Shown here: positions 1-60,429 of the stretch, in pieces
Layout: every line of letters begins with the position of its first letter
How positions within the stretch are numbered: position 1 is the stretch's first letter
Assembly (NCBI RefSeq): GCF_006345805.1
Contig: NC_043011.1
Span: 50,356,464 to 50,420,463, forward strand
Reading direction: 5' to 3'
Origin: Octopus sinensis
Taxonomy: Eukaryota
DNA: 64,000 bases
Made by a program: the position numbers and the translations under genes
The notes under the pieces: generated by a model
The model's input: only the letters and a program-made list of their open reading frames with translations
Databases searched by the model: none
Told to the model about the DNA's origin: nothing

Positions 1-103
1 AACAAAATGGTTCACATTTGTTTGATTAAAAATGTAATGGCAAGTATTTATTCCCCTTTACTTTCCTTTAAAAATCGGCACGAACTTTCTGGACAACCCA
101 ATA
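1..103 (+). mobile_element. Right end of a mariner transposon (transposase C-terminus plus TIR)
   Basis: 3-29 encodes QNGSHLFD*, a mariner-like C-terminus; terminus ...cacgaactttctggacaacccaa followed by TA. Confidence 0.7.
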
Positions 104-439
104 TTTTCTAAGCTTGTCAAATTCTTTTGCCGAGATATTATGATCACAAGGAATGTTCATATTACTCAATAAACAGACTTTAACGTTTCGATGTTTCACA
201 AGAATATCCGGTTTGTTAACTTTGATGGTCTCGTCCGCATGTACTGGAATGTCCCAAAAGCGTTACTTTTTCTCCTTCAGTTACATCCTCAGGACGATGC
301 TGGTACCATTTGTCAACAGTTGTGATTTTATAATGCTGATATATTACGGAGATATACTTGCATAGCAAGTGACCTGATCTGAGATCGTGTGTTGGAACGA
401 AAACAATTGCAGCGTGTGTCCTTTTACGCTAGCTCCTCC

Positions 440-2643: not shown

Positions 2644-3327
2644 ACAATAGCGATTGACCATATTTTATAATAACTGAAGAATTATTATAGTCAACAACGT
2701 ATACAACCACCGAGGATTTCACGGGATAATTAAGAAATAGAAATTACAGAAAAGACAATCAAATATCTATTTTTTCTTAATAATAATCTCTTATATAGGA
2801 TTGAACTTCATTGACTAAAAACTGAAAAGTTTTAATTAATAATATCATGTATATATATCTATGTGTATATAAATATACATATATATGTATATTTATGTAT
2901 ATATTAATGCCACTGAAACAAGTGTTGGATTTTTAAGGCGTCATCTAAAATAAAGACATGATTTTCTTCATACATATTGATTGCTATTAATACTCTGAAT
3001 TTCTTAAAATTCTGTATGAGGATTGTTGGATTTACCTGCCATCCATTAGGATTTACCTGAGATTTGTATTCTGCATATATTTACTGGTATCTGCATGTTG
3101 GAAATTTAACCTTATTCCTTTATACTGTTGTGCTTAACCTTATTCCTTGATATCTGCATGAATTTTAATCCAATATATATATATATATATAATATATATA
3201 TATATATATAATATATATATATACCGGAGTAAACACATAAATGTGAAACAAGGTGGAAAAAAGAGTACTCAAATACCAGTGGTAGAGTAATATGCTTTAT
3301 TTAAAGCAGCAGAAAATTCAACAAAAC

Positions 3328-3365
3328 CTGTTACTCTGAGTTTCCCGTTGCCGTTCATCGGACAG
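3328..3365 (-). ncRNA. Type I hammerhead-like ribozyme, CCGAUGA core variant
   Basis: Minus strand: ctgt CCGATGA a cg-gcaa-cg g GAAA c tcaga GTA acag; helix I ctgt/acag. Confidence 0.65.
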
Positions 3366-3388
3366 TTTTTGCTAGAATCTAGCAAAAA

Positions 3389-3426
3389 CTGTCCGATGAA
3401 CGGCAACGGGAAACTCAGAGTAACAT
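3389..3426 (+). ncRNA. Type I hammerhead-like ribozyme, CCGAUGA variant (mirror copy)
   Basis: ctgt CCGATGA a cggcaacg g GAAA ctcagaGTA acat. Confidence 0.6.
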
Positions 3427-3650
3427 GTTTTGTTGAATTTTCTGCTGCTTTAAATAAAGTATATATATATATTTATTTATATACATATATATATACTCAT
3501 AAAATGCAGTGTACATTTAAACACATAAGGAATCCTCTCGTGGGATTCAGCACGTTAGAAAGAACAGCTAGGTTCTATAACCACAAAATTAGAGATAAAA
3601 TCCCGACAGGAACGAAATGAAAAAATAAAAAAACTTTTACCATCTAGATT

Positions 3651-3723
3651 CCTGGACCAATTGGTTTCTGATTTTAGTTTAGCAAATAAATAATATTCGC
3701 TAGGTGAAATCTTCTTCAACAGG
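3651..3723 (-). ncRNA. Type I hammerhead ribozyme, UUGAAGA core, long helix II, in a PLE-like tail (about 3508-3730)
   Basis: Minus strand: cctg TTGAAGA a gattt...tagcgaata/tatttgcta...aaatc a GAAA ccaattg GTC cagg; palindromic helix III ACCAATTGGT. Confidence 0.75.
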
Positions 3724-4393
3724 TACACCTTAGATTAAATATATAAAACACGAGGCACTCAGCTATGTGCCTTTGTTTATACATCCTAATTTTTTTCAAA
3801 ATCTACTGCGCAGACGCAGCCCCTCGTCGCCAATGAAAATATACCAACTTTTAAAATTCAAATTATCCAAAAACTTACAATACATTCACACATTGTGAAG
3901 GATCTGTAAGTATCCATACCTAGCTGGAAGTGTGTGTCGCTTTTCATAAATCTGTAATGGTATACCTAAAAACGTTTGTTTAGAATTTGTTCCTTTGAAA
4001 TCTAGAAATTCACCTTTGGACAGCTATGTTTGTAAGCTCATGGACCATTCCTATTCTTTCATTTTGCACATTTCTGCCTACATTCATTTGTCCAATTCCT
4101 ATTGGTGTGAATGTGTTAACAGGCTGGCCATTTCGAAACATTTCCCTCTAACTTTCTCTCCCTTTGTCACCTCACACTCCTCTCTCTCTCTCCTAATTTT
4201 CCCTCTCTCTCTTTTTCTTTCTCACTCTCCATGTTTTCTTTTCTTTCTCTCTTCCTCTTTTACTATCTCAGGTGTGTATTGATATATTTATTCGTTTTCC
4301 CCTAATTATCTTCTGTTATTGCTGATCACTATAGTCTTACCATTATTTCTTATATATTTACATATGCATACATATACATACATACATACATGC

Positions 4394-8000: not shown

Positions 8001-8771
8001 AAAGCCCAAAAACATTTGAGGTTATTCTACCTGGTGTAAAGATGGAAAGACAGAGAGCGATGGAGCCCCAACAATAGAAGCATATCTTTTAGAGCTTGCC
8101 CTCCTAACACCACTTCCACTCGCGCCAACAGTGGCGGTAATAAAAGTTCCTGTAATCCTCTTTGTTGTCGATCACAGAAAAGAAACATCACAAGTTCTTC
8201 TTTCAGCAACACTACAATATAGGTTACAGTTTCATACATGACAGAAGTAATTGCAATCATTATCTCAGAAGGTAAGCTAACGATCAGATGTCATGTTCCC
8301 CTGCTACAGTAACCGTAGTAACCAGCAGCACAACCAGTACTACAAAACACCACTAGCACCAGCAGGTTCAGTAGCATCAGCGACACAGTTTTGTGATGAT
8401 GAAGAGTAACAATAAGAAAATCTGCCGGAGGGAGACTCAAAAGCAAAAAGAAAAAAAAAACAGAAACATATCTTGAAGAAGCAAAGAAAGCAACAAAAAT
8501 TAGTGAAGAATCTCTCAATTAGAGAAACGTTTCTTCTTTGCTGTACACAACAGCGATTAGTATATTTTGCATTTCAGTTGGAACAAAAACAACCGATGAA
8601 CTATCTCAGTAATATAGTCATCTGTCCATCTTTTTTTACCATTATTCTTAGGAAGGTATTGGAGGTAGAATCCTAAGGGATCTACACCCACTACATTTCA
8701 TAGGGTCTCATAAGAAGAAGCGTCATGAGACATTCTGGATCCATTCCCAAGCGAAGCCAACTGAGTCTGGC

Positions 8772-12169: not shown

Positions 12170-13010
12170 GAAACCATACCAGCTACCCTCTAGGAAGATC
12201 CTACGTCTCATGGGTCGTGATATACAGAGCAACTTTAAACCATCAGATAGCATTACAGGGCACTATACAGCCATGAGGGCCAATGACTTCAAGGAAAGCT
12301 ATTTTTAGCACTTGCAGACACGAGACTGAAGAGACTGGAAGGAATCAGTTGCTCTATGGAGCCTGAAAGATATATCATCATCCAGGGAGCAAGAACGGCT
12401 GACTGTGCTGCCCAGGTAGACAAACTTGTCTAATTTCAGTATTGTTCCGTCAACCAAGATAGCTGGTCCCACATGTAGATTTCCTGGTGCAGGCTGGAAC
12501 ATTATAACAGTCTTATCCAGGCTAATTCTGAATCCAAGTGCCTTGCAAGAAGCAGAAATACGATTCATAAGTATTTGCATGTCATCCACTGTACGAGTGA
12601 CTAAGTTACAGTCATCTGCATAAAGGAGGTCACGAATAAGAAACTGGAAAACTTTTGAATTAGCAGCAAATCAGAGCAGATTAAAGAGGAAGCCAGAATA
12701 TCAACACCTGACATATATTCCCAAAGCATGAGTAAAAACAGCAGCAAAGAACTAAGGGTAGAGAGTTGGGACAAGAATGGCACCCTGCTTGACACCTTTC
12801 TCTACAGGAATGGTTCCCGCTATACAACCACCGACATTGACCCAAGCGCCCATTTCATCTAGAAATTATTTAATTATAGATACAATTTGATCTGGACATC
12901 CACGTTTCCCAAGTATTTTCCATAGCAAGGCCCTATTCACAATTAAATCAATGAATACCTGGACAAGATTCATATTCTGCTAATAGCAGAATATATGTCC
13001 ATATCTGCTT
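12170..13010 (-). pseudogene. RTE (BovB-like) LINE reverse transcriptase fragment
   Basis: LWKILGKRGCP, GVKQG, LLYADD, DKFVYLGSTVSRSCSLDDDISFR; contains stops and frameshifts. Confidence 0.9.
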
Positions 13011-14749: not shown

Positions 14750-15282
14750 AATCAATATAAGGGTAGCAAAAAAATTCAAGAAAAATTCAAGAAAAATTTT
14801 CTGCAACCAGCGGTCAAGTGAGAAAGTAGAAATAGTCACAGACTATATAATATATTCGACAATAATATTAAGGAATGACCCTGACAGGCCGTTCAACTCA
14901 CTTGAAAAGAGCAGCTAAACTCAAACCGCAAAATAGTAGTAATTCTGAAACTAAAGGAGAAATAAAAACATTTATCCCCTTCAACTTTGTACCATGCATG
15001 GTTTCAACATTTTTACGTAATCGAATTTAATTAAATTAAATTAAATCCGTTTACGATTGGCTTGTCTCATCAGCAAAGTCGCCAAAGAAAAGGAAAATAC
15101 ATACACACGAGGCAGCACCATCGAAGTCTCGAGTTTATATATCCTAAATTTTCGAAATCCACCGATAAATGTTTTTATTTCTCCTTTAGTTTCAGAATTA
15201 CTACTATTTTGCGGTTTGAGTTTAGCTGCTCTTTTCAAAGTGAGTTGAACGGCCTGTCAGGGTCATTCCTTAATATTATTGT
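14750..15282 (-). mobile_element. Penelope-like terminus with inverted partial copy (arms 14859-14976 / 15164-15282) in TA tracts
   Basis: About 118-bp near-identical inverted arms enclosing an HHR. Confidence 0.8.
14984..15079 (-). ncRNA. Canonical type I hammerhead ribozyme with extended helix II
   Basis: Minus strand: actttg CTGATGA gaca...cgtaa-cggatttaatt/aattaaattcg-ttacg...tgtt GAAA ccatgcatg GTA caaagt; 6-bp helix I, palindromic helix III ACCATGCATGGT. Confidence 0.9.
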
Positions 15283-19480: not shown

Positions 19481-19559
19481 ACCTCTTAGAAAACTCTAAA
19501 TAAATGTTTACTGTCTTTCACGAACTGAAAATGGCTTGACCTACTCTCTAACGTATATA

Positions 19560-19774
19560 TATTTCTTTACAACCCACAAGGTGCTAAACACCGAGGGGAC
19601 AAACAAGGACAGACAAACGGATTAAGTCGATTACATCGACCCCAGTGCGTAACTGGTGCTTAATTTATCAACCCCGAAAGGATGAAAGGTAAAGTCGACC
19701 TCGGCGGAATTTGAACCCAGAACGTAACGGCAGACGAAATACGGCTACGCATTTCGCCCGGCGTGCTAACGTTA
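19560..19774 (-). mobile_element. Major tRNA-derived SINE (family S1)
   Basis: Reverse complement of 28819-29050; conserved gcctttcatcctttcggggtcgataa domain. Confidence 0.9.
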
Positions 19775-20418
19775 CTGAAAACTCATTCTGCTACTTAACA
19801 TGAGAAACCTACACAGCTAACAATGTAAACTTAAGCCACTGGATCACATACAAAGGACTCCTGTCCACTCTTCCACCAGATGTTAAATTTGGAGTGCCTT
19901 GGTTGTAACTACACATGTTCACCCATCCGTATCGGTCTTCTATTTAGGCACAAAAATATACTGTCCCGTGACCCTAAATCACGGATGTAGCGGGAAACGT
20001 ACAAAAGTTTATAAACTTAATCACGTTACATTCTCTACAAACACTTGTCACTTGACAGAAAACATTCAGACGCCAAATATGACCACACGGACGTGGCGGG
20101 GAACCTACAAAAAATTCTAAGTCCAGTCATGTGACTATTCTCTACCAATCAAATCCTGTTCAAAATATATACTAATTTGAGCCATGAACTCCCTTTAAAA
20201 AGGGGTCAAGCTTCAAACACTACGCAGAAGCCAAACAGCTGCGACATTAGCCACGTCTTTTTATGTCAACTTTTTGAAAATCATCGTAAACTGTGAAACC
20301 GGTTAAAACTTTAAGTATATGAAAAATAATTTAACTATTCTCAGTGCATTTTCAACTTCTATTTTATCCTTGTGGTATAAAATAACTTTGTATATATATA
20401 TATGACGATAAGGCCCTT

Positions 20419-20889
20419 CTATGTGATTATCCTAGATTTACCAACCATAAAGCGCTTTGCTTTACTGCATATCGTCAGAATCCAAAACTTATTGGCATAT
20501 CTCCTCTCTAGAAAATGGAGGAGGAAAAGATTTCGTTACTTTATCCCAGGACTCACCCGATAGCAGCAGGGTGACAATCCCCTACTGTTGGTATTGAGTA
20601 ACGAAGAAAACCCACACGATAACAGAGTTGCTTACAAAAGCAGCCGAAGGGAGACAATCCCTTGTTCTCAACGAAGTAACGACATCCTCTGCTCCTCTAT
20701 GTTCTAGAGAAGCCACTTGCTAAAGACAATATATAACAAAAGGATTCGATGTCTGATGATACGCTGTAAAGCTAAGCGCTTTATGGACGTGAAACCCAGG
20801 CTAATCCTATAGACCGGTTTTATTTTTATACTACACTGCTATATAACTTACAGTGTGCTTCTTTTTCTTATGTGCTTAAATGTACACTG

Positions 20890-25211: not shown

Positions 25212-26000
25212 TTAATATTTTTTCCAATTTCTTATTTCATCTAATTTCAACTCACGAGCTGTGGCCATGATGGGGCACCGCCCTTTGGGGTTGCTACATA
25301 ATTTTACTTCACGAATGCTTTTTAGCAATTGACATTTGGTGGATGAGAGAGTTTGATGCAGCTGCACCTCCTGCCGCAAATTTGGTTCATCTGAGACACC
25401 TGAAAGGAAAAGGTTCAGCTTTATTTTGAAGACACCTGCATCCACCCCAAGCAGGTCTCTCAGGTCCTTCGGGAGGATATTGAAGAGCTGTGAACCTCTA
25501 AAGTCCACGCTATTGCAGTATCTTGTCCTACATCTTGATGGCAAATTTGGAGTCCTTGGCACTAAGCAGTGGCGCCCAGTTCTAGTATTTGTGTAACTCT
25601 CGATGCCAAAGTTTGGGACAAGTCCTTCCAGGATCTTCCAGATGTATAGTATGGCATATCTTTCTCGCCTACGCTCTAAGGAATAGAGTATTAATCTCTT
25701 GAGTCTTTCCCAAAAGCTCATATGCTGCATAGAGGCTATATTCTTCGTGTAGCTTCGTTGGATTGCCTCAAGTTCTGAGATTAATTTGACAGTGGTTGGT
25801 GACCATAGCTGAGAGCAATAGTCAAAATGGCTTAGGACAAATGTTCTCCAGAGGACCATCATGGTTTCCTAGTCTCTTGTTCTAAAAGTTCTAAGAAACC
25901 ATCCGGTCAGCCGCCTGCATTCCATTGCCAGTTTAGCAACATGCACATGAAAGTTTACATCATTAGTCATGTAAATGCCCAGGTCTCGCACTGACTGTGC
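25212..26000 (-). pseudogene. CR1/L2-group LINE ORF2 3' portion, 5'-truncated, with in-frame stop
   Basis: VRDLGI, DYCSQLWSP, LEAIQRSYTK, LYSLERRRERY. Confidence 0.92.
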
Positions 26001-26559
26001 ATAAAAAACCTTAATACTTGTGTTGACTAACATCAGGATTATTGTGACACTTGTGGCTGGGGACATCATTGTTGCTGTGATATATGTGCAGTCTCTCGTG
26101 GAAAAACTTCGACATTCATTTCTATGATGATCGAAGTTTTTCTACGAGAGACTCCACTGTACGGGAAATAAAATGGCCATAAACACATGTAATAATATTA
26201 TAACTGTAACAATGTGGAATGATGTTTGTAGCCTACAGGCGCAAACTTCTTAGAATATTTCTAATCAGCAACATCTTATGAAAATTGGCGATTCCAACGG
26301 TGCTGTCAGTGTGATTAGTTTGGTCTACGTGACATTCACCTGTTGGTAACCTTGCGATCGATGGGAACATAAGAGATTTGATATGTTTAGCGAAACTTCT
26401 GTAATGTGACTGATATGTTATGAAACTTATTCATGGAGTTATCGATAAATGTTAGCAATATGTTTGTCCAACTTACATGTATATAGACAGAGACATACGC
26501 ACTAACATGTTTAAGTTTATATATATATGTGTGTGTGTGCCTGTGTCTCTGGGTATATG

Positions 26560-28818: not shown

Positions 28819-29148
28819 AAGGCGGCGAGCTGGCAGAAACGTTAGCACGCCGGGCGAAATACGTAGCCATATTTCGTCTGCCGTTACGTTATGAGTTCAA
28901 ATTCCGCCGAGGTCGACTTTACCTTTCATCCTTTCGGCGTCGATAAATTAAGTAGTAGTTACGCACTGGGGTCGATATAATCGACTTAATCCGTTTGTCT
29001 GTCCTTGTTTGTCCCCTCTGTGTTTAGCCCCTTGTGGGTAGTAAAGAAATAGGTATTTCGTCTGTCGGTATTTCGTTCTGAGTTCACATTCCGCCGAGGT
29101 CGACTTTGCCTTTCATCCTTTTCGGGTCAATAAATTAAGTACCAGTTT
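28819..29148 (+). mobile_element. S1 SINE plus partial tandem second unit
   Basis: Head aaggcggcgagctggcagaaacgttag; body restarts at gtatttcgtctg after the tail. Confidence 0.9.
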
Positions 29149-29572: not shown

Positions 29573-29702
29573 GATCGTTCTTTAATCCCAAGTCGGCCCT
29601 GATCGAGCAGATCTACCATTAGAATTATTCCAACCATAATTGCTGCACTGTTAGGAACACACACACACACACCCACACACATATATATATATATATATAT
29701 AG

Positions 29703-29733
<31 letters not shown>

Positions 29734-29821
29734 CACATATATAACGGTGCAGCAATTATGGTTGGAATAATTCTAATGGTAGATCTGCTCGATCAGGGCG
29801 ACTTGGGATTAAAGAACGATC
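29573..29821. repeat. 80-bp near-perfect inverted duplication (29573-29653 / 29742-29821) around a microsatellite spacer
   Basis: Direct reverse-complement match. Confidence 0.9.
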
Positions 29822-29974: not shown

Positions 29975-30091
29975 TATCAGCCGAAATTGCGAGGTTCTTG
30001 ACTGCAGATTAAAAGCTTCGAATGACCCGCCCGTGTTTTTGTATCGTCTATTTGGATGTATTGCGTTCTTGACCCATTTTGTATCTATCTA

Positions 30092-31904: not shown

Positions 31905-32112
31905 AACGGGAAGGTTTACGAAAATAAACAAAAGACGAAGGCATGTGGAGTACAAACAAACAAATGTATTAGTATGGCGCTCAGGAATAGAAATAGAACA
32001 AGTCTTTTACGTTTCGAGCCTACGCTCTTCGACAGAAAGATACACAGAAAAAAACAAGGAGAGAAACAAGGAGAGAAAAAATGCGTGTAGGAGCTAACGA
32101 TCTAACATGGCG
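31905..32112 (-). mobile_element. PLE-like terminal element (family A) in a TA tract
   Basis: Homologous to 42785-42965, 57150-57300, 57755-57905 and to plus-strand pieces 56898-56972, 57502-57572. Confidence 0.7.
32004..32039 (-). ncRNA. Minimal hammerhead-like motif, CUGUCGA core, zero-loop helix III
   Basis: Minus strand: cttt CTGTCGA a gagc-gtag-gctc GAAAC GTA aaag. Confidence 0.6.
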
Positions 32113-35864: not shown

Positions 35865-36648
35865 CGGCGGCGAGCTGGCAGAAACGTTAGCACGCCGGGC
35901 GAAATGCTTAGCGGTATTTCGTCTGCCGCTACGTTCTGAGTTCAAATTCTGCCGAGATCGAGTTTGCCTTTCATCCTTTCGGGGTCGATAAATTAAGTAC
36001 AAGTTACGCACTGGGGTCGATTTAATCGACTTAATTCGTGTGTCTGTCCTTGTTTGTCCCCTCTGTGTTTAGCCCCTTGTGGGTAGTAAAGAAATAGGTA
36101 TTTCGTCTGCCGCAACATTCTGAGTTCAAATTCCGCCGAGGTCGACTTTGTCTTTCATCCTTTCTGGGTCGATAAATTAAGTAGCAGTTACGTACTGGGG
36201 TCGATATAATGGACTTAATCCGTATGTCTGTCCTTGTTTGTCCTCTCTGTGTTTAGCGCGTTGTGGGTAGTAAAGAAATAGGTATTTCGTCTGCCGCTAC
36301 GTTCTGAGTTCAAATTCCGCCGAGGTCGACTTTGCCTTTCATCCTTTCGGGGTCGATAAATTAAGTAGCAGTTACGTACTGGGGTCGATATAATGGACTT
36401 AATCCGTTTGTCTGTCCTTCTTTGTCCTCTCTGTGTTTAGCCCCTTGTGGGTAGTAAAGAAATAGGTATTTCGTCTGCCGTTACGTTCTGAGTTCATATT
36501 CCGCCGAGGTTGACTTTGCCTTTAATCCTTTCGGGATCGATAAATAAAGTACCAGTTGCGCACTGGGGTCGATGTCATCGACTTAATCCCTTTGTCTGTC
36601 CTTGTTTGTCCCCTTTATGTTTAGTCCCTTGTGGGCAATAAAGAAATA
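35865..36648 (+). mobile_element. S1 SINE with one head and 4 tandem body units of about 184 bp, single 14-bp TSD
   Basis: Units restart at gtatttcgtctgccg (about 35913, 36098, 36282, 36466); TSD agaagcaataaaaa at 35851-35864 and 36649-36662. Confidence 0.92.
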
Positions 36649-37442: not shown

Positions 37443-37666
37443 GCTGGCAGAAACGTTAGCACGCCGGGCGAAATGCGTAGCCGTATTTTGTCTGTCGTTA
37501 CGTTCTGAGTTCAAATTCCGCCGAGGTCGACTTTGCCTTTCATCCTTTCGGGGTCGATAAATTAAGTACCAGTTACGTACTGGGGTCGATGTAATCGACC
37601 TAATACCTATGTCTGTCCTTGTTTGTCCCCTCTGTCTTTAGCCCCTTGTGGGTAATAAAGAAATAG
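37443..37666 (+). mobile_element. S1 SINE
   Basis: Matches the family consensus. Confidence 0.9.
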
Positions 37667-37767
37667 TTATATGTGTGTGTGTGTGTGTGTGTCTGTGTGT
37701 GTGTGTGTCTGTGTGTGTGTGTGCATATACATGTGTGTGTATATATATATATAATATATATATATAG

Positions 37768-43092: not shown

Positions 43093-44084
43093 TAATATGT
43101 AGAAAGATACAAACTGGGACAAGAACGTAAAACATTTAGAAGACGATACAAAAAACACGGGCGGGACATTCGAAGCCTTCAATCTTCAGTCAAGAACCGA
43201 TCATCCTAGCAATTTCGGCTGATTAAATATAATATATATATATCTAAAGAAATAGGAAAGAGAACAGGACGCAGAATGGATGATAGTCATATGATTCATA
43301 TTCACTTTACAAAGGCTGGAAATCAAGATCAGCAAGAATTTTACTCTAGAAATTACCTGAAACTTTAAACAACAGGAAAGTCTAATTACATCATAGTATC
43401 ATTATAGGTGACAGAAACTGAAAGAAACCCGTCGTACATATGTGTGTGTGTGCGTGTATGTGTGTGTGTGTGTGTGTGTGTATGTGTTTATCCCCCAACA
43501 TCACTTGACAACCGATGCTGATGTGTTTACGTCCCCGTAATTTAGCGATAGAATAAGTACTAGGCTTAAAAGAATAAGTCCTGGGGTCAATTTGCTCAAC
43601 TAAAGGTGGTGCTCCAGCATGGCCGCAGTTAGGTGACTGAAACAGATAAACGAATATATATATATATATATATATCCATGCGCCTAACAATTCTTTTTCT
43701 CTATTAACCTATCTACATACATACGTACATACCCGTATATACACATTACATATGGAAATATATAAATACGGTATATGTGTGTGCGTACATGGGTGTGTCT
43801 GTCGTGTGTGTGTGAACGTATCTATGTATACATATTCTGTTCAATTCGTATCGAACAGGTCTAGTGTGCAATACGTTATCTTGCGAAGATTTATAATTCA
43901 CATAAACTGTCCGATCAATAAAAGATGATATAACTGATGTCAGAGACGTTAATTCCAATGTTTGTCTTAATAACATCATTAAGTAAATGAATTATTTACA
44001 TTATTACCTGATCATTATATTGATACTGCTTCTTCTGTTGTTTGTATAATTTGCTTGTTTTAAAGCGGCAACGTTTAGTGTTTA

Positions 44085-45476: not shown

Positions 45477-45709
45477 TATTTCTGTTATTGCCCACAAGGG
45501 GCTAAACATAGAGGGGTCAAACAAGGACAGACAAATGGATTAAATCGATTACATCGACCCCAGTGCGAAACTGGCACTTTATTTATCGAACCCGAAAGGA
45601 TGAAAGGCAAAGTCGACCTCGGCGGAATTTGAACTCAGAACGTAGCGGCAGACGAAATACCGCTAAGCATTTCGCCCGGCGCGTTAAAGTGTCTGCCAGC
45701 TCGCCGCCT
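45477..45709 (-). mobile_element. S1 SINE with 17-bp TSD (further copies at about 44693-45030, 47925-48545, 49118-49200, 49700-49890, 61770-61933)
   Basis: TSD tgaggaggggagagata at 45460-45476 and 45710-45726. Confidence 0.92.
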
Positions 45710-46321
45710 TGAGGAGGGGAGAGATAGGATATCTGAAGTGCCGGTTTTGAAGGTGAAGCGAATCCACCAAGGTATGAAGAGAAGAATGCAGTTATGTGTA
45801 TTAGAACAGACAGGGAATGAAGACAGTCGGGGGGGAAAGGAATTTCAGGGCGTCCGTGAGGGACTTTTATATAGTTGGATTGTCCTTACCTGTGAAGGGC
45901 TTTGGCCGTCCTCGAAGAGGCTCAGCAAGCAAAATACTCACAAAAACTCAGAGAGAAGGGAGAGGGAGAGAGAAATACAAACATTAGTTTTTCTTGAATG
46001 CACAGGGATGTTGTGAAGTGCTGTACGTGTTCAGCATCGAATATTTTAAGTAATAAATAATTGTAGTAATTACTTGTCGTTTAACAACCATAATTCAATA
46101 TTGTGAGTAGATAGATAGATAGATAAATTTCTTTATTAGCTACACAGGGCTAGACACAGAGGGGACAATTACAATGTAGAGTTTTTCTTTTCGAGGGGGG
46201 CGAAAACAAAGTAAAAAAAAGACAAAAATAGGGACAACGATCAAAATGGATCGAAATCGTTGGGGATATATGCAAAAAATGTCGAAATAGTACAAAAAGT
46301 TCCTAAGAAATGGGGAGATTA

Positions 46322-50814: not shown

Positions 50815-52568
50815 ACATGAAAGTAGTAAATAGATACCCTTATAATCATAAAAATTTATTTAAATCTGAAATTATGCATTCAAATTATTTGTTAGTTGTT
50901 ATAATGTGAACATTTAATATTTAGTAGACATGCTCTTTGCATTGTCAATGCAAGGGCCCTATTAGGCATGTTACTGATCAGATGGTGAATATTCTTGCGG
51001 AATCTTTTTGCTTTCATGCAATAATCTCAAAATTTCTGGCTTTGAAGATGCTTTCTTGTTCTGTTTATGAAATGCCCTGTCCATTATGCCCCGGAGGTGT
51101 TCTGTAGGGTTCATATCTGGTGACTGGCTTGGCTATGGAAGCTTTCTAATGCCATTCTTTTCCAACAAATCTTGGGTCATTTTAACCGTGTGATAAGGAA
51201 TCCCATCTTCCATAAATAGTCTTCTTTGATAAAGAACCAAAAGAATACCCTCCACCAGGCATTTGCCATATCCTGAACGCCTTACTTCCCTGGGCATGGA
51301 CACATTGAAACTCCGACGTCTGGCAGCTGACCTGGCAGACACCCATAAAATCATCAACCATCGCACAAACAATAACACTGAGCACCTCTTCAAACTCCAC
51401 CCATCTAACACCCGTGGACATATTTACAAAGTAAGAAAACAGCACAGCTCCCATGACTTCAGGAAACATTTTTTCACGCTGAGAGTTGCTGAAGCGTGGA
51501 ACAAACTGCCGGCATCGGTTGTTAGTTGTCGGGGCACTGCATCCTTCAAGACTTCCATGCTTCCTGAGATTCGCCAACACTACACTTGATTTTCTCCCCT
51601 CCATACACACACAAGCATGTTCACTTTCCAGACATTTCTACATTACTGCATGTACTTTATATGCACTTTCTGACAAGGTGTGGTGCACCTGAGCACTGTA
51701 TACAATAATTTCATTATTATTATTATTATTATTATCATTATTATTATTATAATTTCCCCACTGGAGAAGTTTGGAAGGAGTCCTTTCTGCAATATGGACA
51801 CATATTTATTTGAGTTTCTGGTTCCCTCACACTCCACCAGCTCTGATCAACTATTACTCCAAATTGTTCCCCAGACCATCACAAAATAGCTGCTATGTTT
51901 CATTGCTGGTTGCAATCTTTTCACATCAAATTCTTGATCACAGTCTCCAGACCCACACTCGACCACTGTTAGGGAAATACAGCAAATCCGGACTCATCAA
52001 GCAATATGACAGTGTCCCAAAATGCTCATGGCTTCTCCACCAACTCACTGGCCCTATATTTTCTCAGCTTCATATTGGCTGGGTAAAGATGTGGCTTCCT
52101 TCTTCCTGCTCTACCATATTAACCAAGTTTGTAGAGATACCTGGCAGCTGTTCTGGGACTGACATCAACTTGCTCTGCTATGTCAGAGGCCTTGCAACGG
52201 GGATTATCCTCCACACTTCTCTTAGCAAAGAGAAGGGTCCTGTCACAGGGCCCTGGTTGAACTGGGCAAGGTGATGTGAACTCCTTCCCCTCTCTAGTGA
52301 ATATAGAAAGCGGGACCTCTCTATTAAATATAGAAAGCGGGACCCCAAGGTTTTCTGCGGTTTTACGCTGACTATATCCACCTTCAGAATGACCCACGAT
52401 ACGGCCTCTTTGAAATTCAGACAGTTCCAAAGCTTCTTTTGTATATGGCATGATTAAACAGTCGCATATAGAAACTGAAACATAAAAATGTCAATTAATA
52501 AGAAACATAAAACTTTACAAGTTAAAATAAACAGAAAACGATGTTTTATGGGGTGTCTATTTACTTCT

Positions 52569-56237: not shown

Positions 56238-56272
56238 GTTTCCGACGAAGAGCTCCGCTCGAAACGTTAAAC
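56238..56272 (+). ncRNA. Minimal hammerhead-like motif, CCGACGA core, zero-loop helix III
   Basis: gttt CCGACGA a gagc-tcc-gctc GAAAC GTT aaac; tail runs into (TA)n at 56373. Confidence 0.6.
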
Positions 56273-57949: not shown

Positions 57950-57998
<49 letters not shown>

Positions 57999-58045
57999 AA
58001 AACTTACTTGGAGAAATAAGAAAGTGACGCGAGGCGTTCAATCAT

Positions 58046-58403
58046 ATAATAACAATTTAACAAATAAAACATATGCATACATACATACATATATGTACAT
58101 ACCTACATCTATATGTATATATACATGCATATATATATATATAAGAGTACAGGACACCACAAATAAACGTAGAACACAACGAGAAACGAAAACAAAAACA
58201 AACAAGGAAACGGACTTTTTTTAACGTCCGTTCCTGTTTGTTTATGTTTTCGTTTCTCGTTGTGTTCTACGTTTATTTGTGGAGTCCTGTACTCTTATAT
58301 ATATATATATGCATGTATATATACATATAGATGTAGATGTACATATATGTATGTATGTATGATGTATGTATTATCATATGTTTTATTTGTTAATTGTTAT
58401 TAT
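58046..58403. repeat. About 360-bp palindrome centred near 58220
   Basis: taagagtacaggacaccacaaataaacgtagaacacaacgag vs ctcgttgtgttctacgtttatttgtggagtcctgtactctta. Confidence 0.9.
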
Positions 58404-58417
58404 ATATATATTATATA

Positions 58418-58450
<33 letters not shown>

Positions 58451-58624
58451 ATAAATATTAGGGAATAAATCCAAATTTACAGGGAAAAAATCAGATTTAG
58501 GATTAAATCCAATTTTATAGTAAAATATTATATAATATTAATTAGAGACAAAACCACTATTTTGCAAAACAAACAAGGAAGACTTAATCAATACATAAAA
58601 TTTTAATAAAAAGTAAAAAAACCG

Positions 58625-58667
58625 CCACTACAATTGTTTCATGTCTTGATCGACAATCTTCAGGTGG
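58625..58667 (-). ncRNA. Canonical minimal type I hammerhead ribozyme
   Basis: Mirror of 58736-58778. Confidence 0.85.
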
Positions 58668-58735
58668 ATTTCCGATTTTCAAGTCAGTTTCAAATTATGA
58701 AGTCATAATTTGAAACTGACTTGAAAATCGGAAAT

Positions 58736-58778
58736 CCACCTGAAGATTGTCGATCAAGACATGAAACAATTGTAGTGG
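58736..58778 (+). ncRNA. Canonical minimal type I hammerhead ribozyme
   Basis: ccac CTGAAGA t tgtc-gatcaa-gaca t GAAA caatt GTA gtgg; predicted cleavage after 58774. Confidence 0.85.
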
Positions 58779-58892
58779 CGGTTTTTTTTACTTTTTATTA
58801 AAATTTTATGTATTGATTAAGTCTTTCCTGTTTGTTTTGCAAAATAGTGGTTTTGTCTCTAATTAATATTAATATATATATATTAATATATA

Positions 58893-60211: not shown

Positions 60212-60392
60212 ATATACATATATAATATATATATAATATATAATAATAAATATTAGGGAAAATCCAAATTTACAGGGAAAAATCAGATTTAGGATTAAAT
60301 CCAATTTTATAGTAAAATATTATATAATATTATTAGAGACAAAACCACTATTTTGCAAAACAAACAAGGAAAGACTTAATCAATACATAAAA

Positions 60393-60429
<37 letters not shown>

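Follow-up and report, generated by a model that had tools for sequence, protein, structure and literature searches.

A palindrome whose two arms each carry a type I hammerhead motif with the core CCGAUGA, that is, with C in place of U at position 4 of CUGANGA, raises the question of what the unusual base stands for: an active ribozyme variant kept by a mobile element, or a change that was simply carried along with it. The locus lies in a 64-kb stretch of repeat-rich eukaryotic DNA, 21% of it simple repeats, which is analysed here as a whole and referred to as the window. The favoured reading, to which we give a probability of roughly 0.7, is that positions 3224-3459 represent the 3' stub of a Penelope-like element (PLE) inserted into (TA)n as a head-to-head inverted pair, with C4 probably present in the template and the motifs weak or uncleaving. 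The palindrome is genuine DNA and looks mostly ordinary: among the 10 loci with hammerheads in these 64 kb, it is most likely just another PLE insertion that was truncated.

Extent of the palindrome and of the inserted unit

The first-pass annotation described a 175-bp palindrome with a 1-nt loop, and this description holds. The stretch 3290-3464 is centred on A3377, and 85 of its 87 arm pairs are complementary, the mismatches being 3328/3426 and 3294/3460. Folded with its flanks, it has a minimum free energy (MFE) of -154.6 kcal/mol (z = -24.7), and because none of 200 shuffles was as stable, it cannot be put down to chance. The limits of the insertion need correcting: on the right side the outermost four pairs of the palindrome are TA target, and the left arm alone continues for another 71 nt, to 3224, a tail that the right arm lacks. 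The corrected unit spans 236 bp (3224-3459) in the order TA tract, tail, left copy, junction, right copy, TA tract, with (TA)n directly outside both ends and a single mismatch, 3328/3426, between the duplicated 82-bp arms (Table 1).

Table 1. Features of the insertion and its flanks (window coordinates; a dot marks features without strand).
Feature	Position	Strand
(TA)n microsatellite, left flank; putative insertion target	3174..3223	.
71-nt one-sided extension of the left arm; putative PLE tail, ending at (TA)n	3224..3294	-
Left arm, 82 bp; putative 5'-truncated pLTR copy, reading outward from the centre	3295..3376	-
Type I hammerhead motif, left arm; C3 3361, C4 3360; predicted cleavage after 3332	3320..3373	-
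1-nt loop where the copies meet head-to-head; C3 of each arm lies 16 nt downstream	3377..3377	.
Right arm, 82 bp; repeats the left arm in inverted orientation with one difference, T3426	3378..3459	+
Type I hammerhead motif, right arm; core 3393-3399, C3 3393, C4 3394; predicted cleavage after A3422	3381..3434	+
Right-flank microsatellite, rich in (TA)n; a second hammerhead-bearing end (~3498-3730, -) also landed here with its 3' side	3460..3497	.

Near-perfect palindromes with zero spacer are a known class of artefact. A fold-back formed during assembly or library preparation is nevertheless hardly credible here: the arms differ internally, the tail is one-sided, and arm identities among the inverted pairs of the window range from 74.5 to 99%, which is what genuine insertions of unequal age should show. 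Equally remote is a fold-back MITE or a hairpin-RNA (miRNA-like) locus in which the hammerhead motif would be incidental. Such a locus could have the TA flanks and inverted arms, and the Rfam model mir-4484 does match the hairpin, but at 54.6 bits against a gathering threshold of 90, and perfect hairpins elsewhere in the window also match miRNA models. The ends, moreover, are asymmetric, with 71 nt on the left lacking a partner, instead of the symmetric terminal inverted repeats of a MITE, and the full CCGA motif was absent from all 30 shuffles. Across the window, the Rfam matches listed (150 of 215) were sub-threshold miRNA-hairpin and microsatellite matches only.

The hammerhead motifs and their expected activity

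Read outward, each arm presents helix I, the core CCGAUGA, a GCAA-capped stem, GAAA, helix III and GUA. Inspection of the motifs confirms what had been claimed of each arm, namely helix I, the GCAA-capped helix II, GAAA and GUA, as well as the replacement of U4 by C in both, so that neither has the CUGANGA core of a type I hammerhead. The type I topology itself is clear, with helix I closing the core and the open ends lying in helix I in both arms. In the left arm helix I consists of 4 bp, a mismatch and 7 bp, with one G-U; in the right arm 3 bp are followed by two mismatches, T3426 breaking pair 4. The right arm also has GAA at 3410-3412 (GAAA at 3410-3413) and, at 3420-3422, GUA as an NUH cleavage triplet.

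A weakness that the earlier annotation did not mention concerns helix II. In the right arm it comprises two Watson-Crick pairs only (3401-3402/3407-3408) under the GCAA loop, and beside the core, where a 10.1-11.1 pair, usually G-C, would be expected, A3400 faces G3409. A3400 is either an extra base between 9 and 10.1, in which case G3409 is extra too, or a mispaired 10.1. Stems II of 2 bp do occur in natural hammerheads, according to the available text of PMC3088659. Helix II contributes -0.9 kcal/mol here, against -2.7 and -3.9 in sister motifs. The hammerhead structure of a single motif reaches -6.7 kcal/mol against an MFE of -10.1, so the monomer does not fold as a hammerhead; this result discriminates little, since canonical sister motifs likewise misfold in their monomer MFE. 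At E <= 10, Rfam recognised a hammerhead family neither in the right arm nor in the control, the canonical arm at 58.7 kb. A coding explanation of C4 is not supported: in the left arm the reading frame that starts at the ATG of the core runs for just 29 codons, and in the frame of CGA a stop follows directly.

Helix III (3413-3421) is itself palindromic, ACUC-A-GAGU, with a self-duplex of -7.4 kcal/mol, which would allow dimers. Dimer cleavage through this sequence would require two sense copies, as in tandem pLTRs. The two arms, however, have their motifs on different strands, so that a transcript reading through the locus contains a single sense motif together with its own antisense and folds into a rod of -154.6 kcal/mol. 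The palindrome thus makes no cis-acting double ribozyme, because the transcript pairs the sense motif with its antisense, and at this locus the predicted cleavage by the motifs is weak or absent. As both arms were copied from one template, they count once as evidence.

A probable Penelope-like insertion and its neighbours

We infer PLE membership of 3224-3459 from architecture, since an RT-GIY-YIG ORF is absent from the stub and its flanks. Among 30 Pfam-searched frames from five regions near hammerhead ends, neither RT nor GIY-YIG was found except for an RVT_1 remnant at ~12.3 kb (E 1.5e-10), which looks LINE-like and is not linked. The unit shares with EN+ PLEs an inverted 5'-truncated copy in head-to-head orientation, a palindromic junction, a tail at one end only and a (TA)n target on both sides. 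Excerpts of PMC8557442 describe an adjoining copy that is inverted and 5'-truncated, a tail confined to one end and a preference for (TA)n; those of PMC3846280 state that inverted pLTRs are mostly head-to-head, ascribe palindromes at the inverted junction to self-priming and mention an optional 31-bp tail on one of the inverted pLTRs. Hammerheads in pLTRs, including dual minimal motifs on opposite strands 100-700 bp apart, are reported in the accessible part of PMC4209133, where PLE hammerheads carry one additional base after A9, have a palindromic helix III and show little activity even when dimeric. Against the PLE reading stands the length of the tail, 71 nt, which exceeds the 30-40 bp given for one-sided PLE tails in the available portions of PMC8557442 and PMC3846280.

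The structure of the unit could be explained by the following sequence of events. A PLE endonuclease would nick AT-rich DNA, here (TA)n, and the RT would copy ~150 nt from the RNA end, tail included, stopping early, 16 nt upstream of the core. The new strand would then self-prime or switch template, copying itself back for 82 nt, after which the copied-back end would join the TA tract. In the parent element the palindromic helix III would let the motif act in dimeric form, perhaps with the assistance of a protein. Biochemical work on a PLE, as far as the available text of PMC11167929 goes, found that it cuts AT-rich DNA, that two RT start sites explain the tail, that the ribozyme is protein-assisted and that cleavage-dead mutants insert unchanged in vitro. 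The fold-back junctions preserve a record of the way in which PLEs produce inverted ends, a point that the cited papers do not settle.

A stub of a non-autonomous hammerhead repeat (a retrozyme or a SINE-like pLTR derivative), mobilised by PLE enzymes and not part of a coding PLE, would share its mechanism with the PLE-stub explanation. No ORF is attached to the stub, and the available text of a recent preprint (bioRxiv 10.64898/2026.07.22.740005) presents animal retrozymes as non-autonomous PLE derivatives with type I hammerheads. It also defines them, however, as tandem direct repeats, whereas 3224-3459 is inverted, single and furnished with a one-sided tail, which makes this origin quite improbable.

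The putative PLE stub at 3224-3459 is a single locus, no second copy of its family being found within the 64-kb window. Neither a 23-nt motif from this family nor one of 25 nt from the family at 56242 had a match in prokaryotic and phage contigs, and plasmid and phage collections held none to the family, all of which is uninformative on the host genome. Family copies were also sought through spurious translations, with none at E <= 10 and no Atlas match; three matches to cluster representatives obtained in this way were repeat-driven and unrelated.

The fold-back layout of 3224-3459 recurs in other families of the window and is routine here. At 58459-58861 lies a ~320-bp palindrome with a 2-nt loop, 96-97.5% arm identity, a longer left side and TA flanks, which carries two canonical CUGAAGA type I motifs (C3 58663-, 58740+) whose helix III is palindromic and in which two U residues face each other next to the core; a truncated copy of the end of this element occupies 60254-60397. 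The inverted pair at 20418-20813 is older (arm identity 74.5%), and its arms carry motifs at 20478(-) and 20753(+). In both of these double-motif fold-backs, at 58.7 kb and 20.6 kb, position 4 is U. The pair at 14751-15282 is asymmetric, with 119-bp arms of 96-99% identity and a long left extension, and its spacer contains one canonical CUGAUGA motif at 15073(-), whose helix I has 8 bp and whose helix III is a perfect palindrome of 12 nt; this motif is the best candidate in the window for an active dimeric ribozyme. No hammerhead motif was detected in the inverted pair at 57975-58450 (88%) or in the arms of those at 29574-29820, 932-2085 and 26086-26157, of which the 29.6-kb pair encloses a microsatellite.

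Other hammerhead-bearing ends occur outside such pairs. Adjoining the unit, an end at 3498-3730 (-) uses the same right (TA)n tract, and its motif at 3719 has a long loop II, a palindromic helix III and the core UUGAAGA, a C3U change without a compensating A8. The minimal hammerhead ends at 32035(-) and 42897(-) are ~79% identical to each other and related to 56242; both have A6U, and this shared base suggests a core departure at the level of the lineage. Single type I motifs with canonical cores, a long loop II and a palindromic helix III are present at 1604(+) and 13178(-), the 1604 end being ~79% like the 58.6-kb family in its downstream part. Two related ends in TA tracts (29976-30081 and 43110-43223, 81% identical) combine CUGAAGA or CUGCAGA and a hairpin with no clean GAAA, and are possibly another degenerate hammerhead family.

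The remaining repeats include an abundant SINE-like repeat of 230 nt, represented by 18 aligned pieces (19555-19784, 28821-29056, 35866-36648, 37443-37670, 45477-45710 and others) and partly tandem at 35.9-36.6 kb. Decayed coding remnants of non-LTR retrotransposons lie at 12305-12670(-), 25212-25868(-), 51233-51589(-) and 100-400(-), and the LINE-like ORF at 25.2 kb has RT-related homologues with invertebrate names only (Clytia, Petrolisthes). The repeats may resemble those of cephalopods.

The status of C4 and its known relatives

A relaxed descriptor allowing at most one core departure gave seven matches in the window, three of them with CCGA; 30 block shuffles averaged 1.1 matches and never yielded CCGA. 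The census drawn up for the window comprises 13 motifs at 10 loci, 10 motifs coming from descriptors and three (1604, 20478, 20753) spotted by eye; the weak matches at 8503 and 59502 (no helix I) and at 43189 (no GAAA) were excluded, as was 237(-). The descriptor match at 237(-) was dropped because its region translates like a remnant of a non-LTR restriction-like endonuclease. On the 3' side a (TA)5+ run lies within 326 nt of all 13 motifs and within 300 nt of 12 of them, as compared with 32% of random positions for the latter distance. Cores deviate from CUGANGA at five of the 10 loci through four independent departures, U4C, U4C, A6U (in two related copies) and C3U. These departures bear on whether PLE hammerheads are selected for cleavage at all, and suggest that animal PLE lineages may fix non-canonical hammerhead cores.

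C4 is identical in two arms that differ at 1 of 82 positions, and most likely, therefore, it was already in the copied template. Judged from the aligned arms, the change most likely predates or accompanies the insertion; gene conversion between the arms is a possible but less likely source of the shared base. The same base had also been reported at 56242 in a different family, correctly so: the core there is CCGACGA, and the sequence is unrelated to 3224-3459. The conclusion drawn from this recurrence, that C4 is a tolerated variant rather than decay, survives in part. Decay after insertion is indeed unlikely in view of the agreement between the arms, but the step from recurrence to tolerance is not supported. 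By the substitution spectrum of the window itself, estimated from the 18 aligned copies of the 230-nt repeat as a proxy for core changes, U4C makes up 5% of random core changes. Given the first U4C, a second among the other three departures has P = 0.14, the fairest figure; with U4C specified beforehand the probability of at least two is P = 0.014, and that of any identical pair is P = 0.43, in a census that admits only one core departure per motif. The value for U4C named in advance leans towards real tolerance.

A hammerhead with this same change is reportedly carried by peach latent mosaic viroid, the core variant being the subject of a paper by Ambros and Flores. U4, considered normally invariant at first reading, is not strictly so in nature: the accessible text of PMC3088659 records a natural U4C variant of a viroid and, citing the original work, states that its activity is lower in vitro and that enough is retained in vivo for infectivity. 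Such a precedent would fit an origin from the same kind of PLE in which C4 is fixed both here and in the 56242 family, and in which a CCGA-core hammerhead, acting as a dimer or aided by a protein, is active and under selection. That C4 occurs in both arms, and hence probably in a mobilised template, is consistent with such a history, as are its presence at two of 10 loci in unrelated families (P = 0.014 on the terms given above) and the 4-bp helix II starting with G-C and 4-bp helix I that 56242 keeps. The conditional probability of 0.14 speaks against it, together with the relatives of 56242, which differ from it in having A6U, as relaxed selection on the core would produce, and with the 2-bp helix II and A·G of the motif at 3224-3459. 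In the available material of PMC4209133 (Fig. S3), all 56 representative PLE hammerheads have U4 and a helix II of at least 3 bp, a figure biased by a descriptor that demanded the core, and in a mutational scan of a type III hammerhead single mutants of the CUGA turn were low in activity, according to the part of PMC9901934 at hand. On balance, an active CCGA hammerhead under selection appears unlikely.

The component claims differ in strength. That C4 is the consensus of its family has about even odds; that it is both fixed and meaningfully active is doubtful. We read C4 as a mildly deleterious change carried along as a passenger, because PLE insertion does not need cleavage. Being tolerated by the retroelement is different from being catalytically active, since the weak helix II is present as well and hammerhead-dead PLE mutants still inserted in vitro. 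U4C in PLEs is not claimed here as unpublished, since Lünse et al., writing on dimeric PLE hammerheads, may list core variants. The available text of PMC6962438, PMC2837043 and PMC3376415 adds nothing on U4C, and among the matches listed (25 of 47) in a literature search on octopus Penelope hammerheads no title concerned such a family.

It is tempting to consider, as a minority view, that at least two unrelated PLE lineages of this animal independently fixed a CCGA (U4C) hammerhead whose cleavage persists in the dimer or when the protein of the element assists. Were this true, there would be a class of animal ribozymes unseen by every CUGANGA descriptor, and PLE families, which also sample A6U and C3U, would amount to a mutational scan of the hammerhead core performed by nature. 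Should C4 prove fixed in the family consensuses, with covarying helices and RNAs that cleave, animal ribozymes are undercounted by current searches; should it prove fixed there without cleavage, PLEs spread without catalysis.

Several known systems bracket the putative PLE stub at 3224-3459. Animal non-LTR retrozymes, as presented in the available text of bioRxiv 10.64898/2026.07.22.740005, are likewise non-coding type I hammerhead repeats related to pLTRs, but they form tandem direct arrays, in contrast to the single inverted pair described here. Naiad PLEs resemble it in (TA)n targeting, inverted structures and a tail, and, so far as the accessible text of PMC8557442 shows, they lack complete canonical hammerhead motifs, some having non-canonical cores; of four short motifs of the present element compared with File S1 of that paper, three had no match and the fourth fell mid-sequence in one record among the matches listed, with no family match. 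The viroid hammerhead (PMC3088659, ref. 30, from the text available) has the same core change, but belongs to a replicating plant RNA with loop-loop tertiary support, whereas the unit at 3224-3459 is a genomic stub of an animal retroelement with a weak helix II. The closest likeness is with the hammerhead-bearing pLTR ends of EN+ PLEs (Penelope/Poseidon, Neptune, Hydra), which, in the excerpts available of PMC4209133, PMC3846280 and PMC8557442, combine a type I hammerhead near the 3' end and a palindromic helix III with a head-to-head inverted 5'-truncated copy, a junction palindrome, a one-sided tail and a microsatellite target. From these ends 3224-3459 differs in having C4 instead of U4, a helix II of 2 bp in which A·G takes the place of G10.1-C11.1, a tail of 71 nt instead of 30-40, and no ORF left by which to place its clade.
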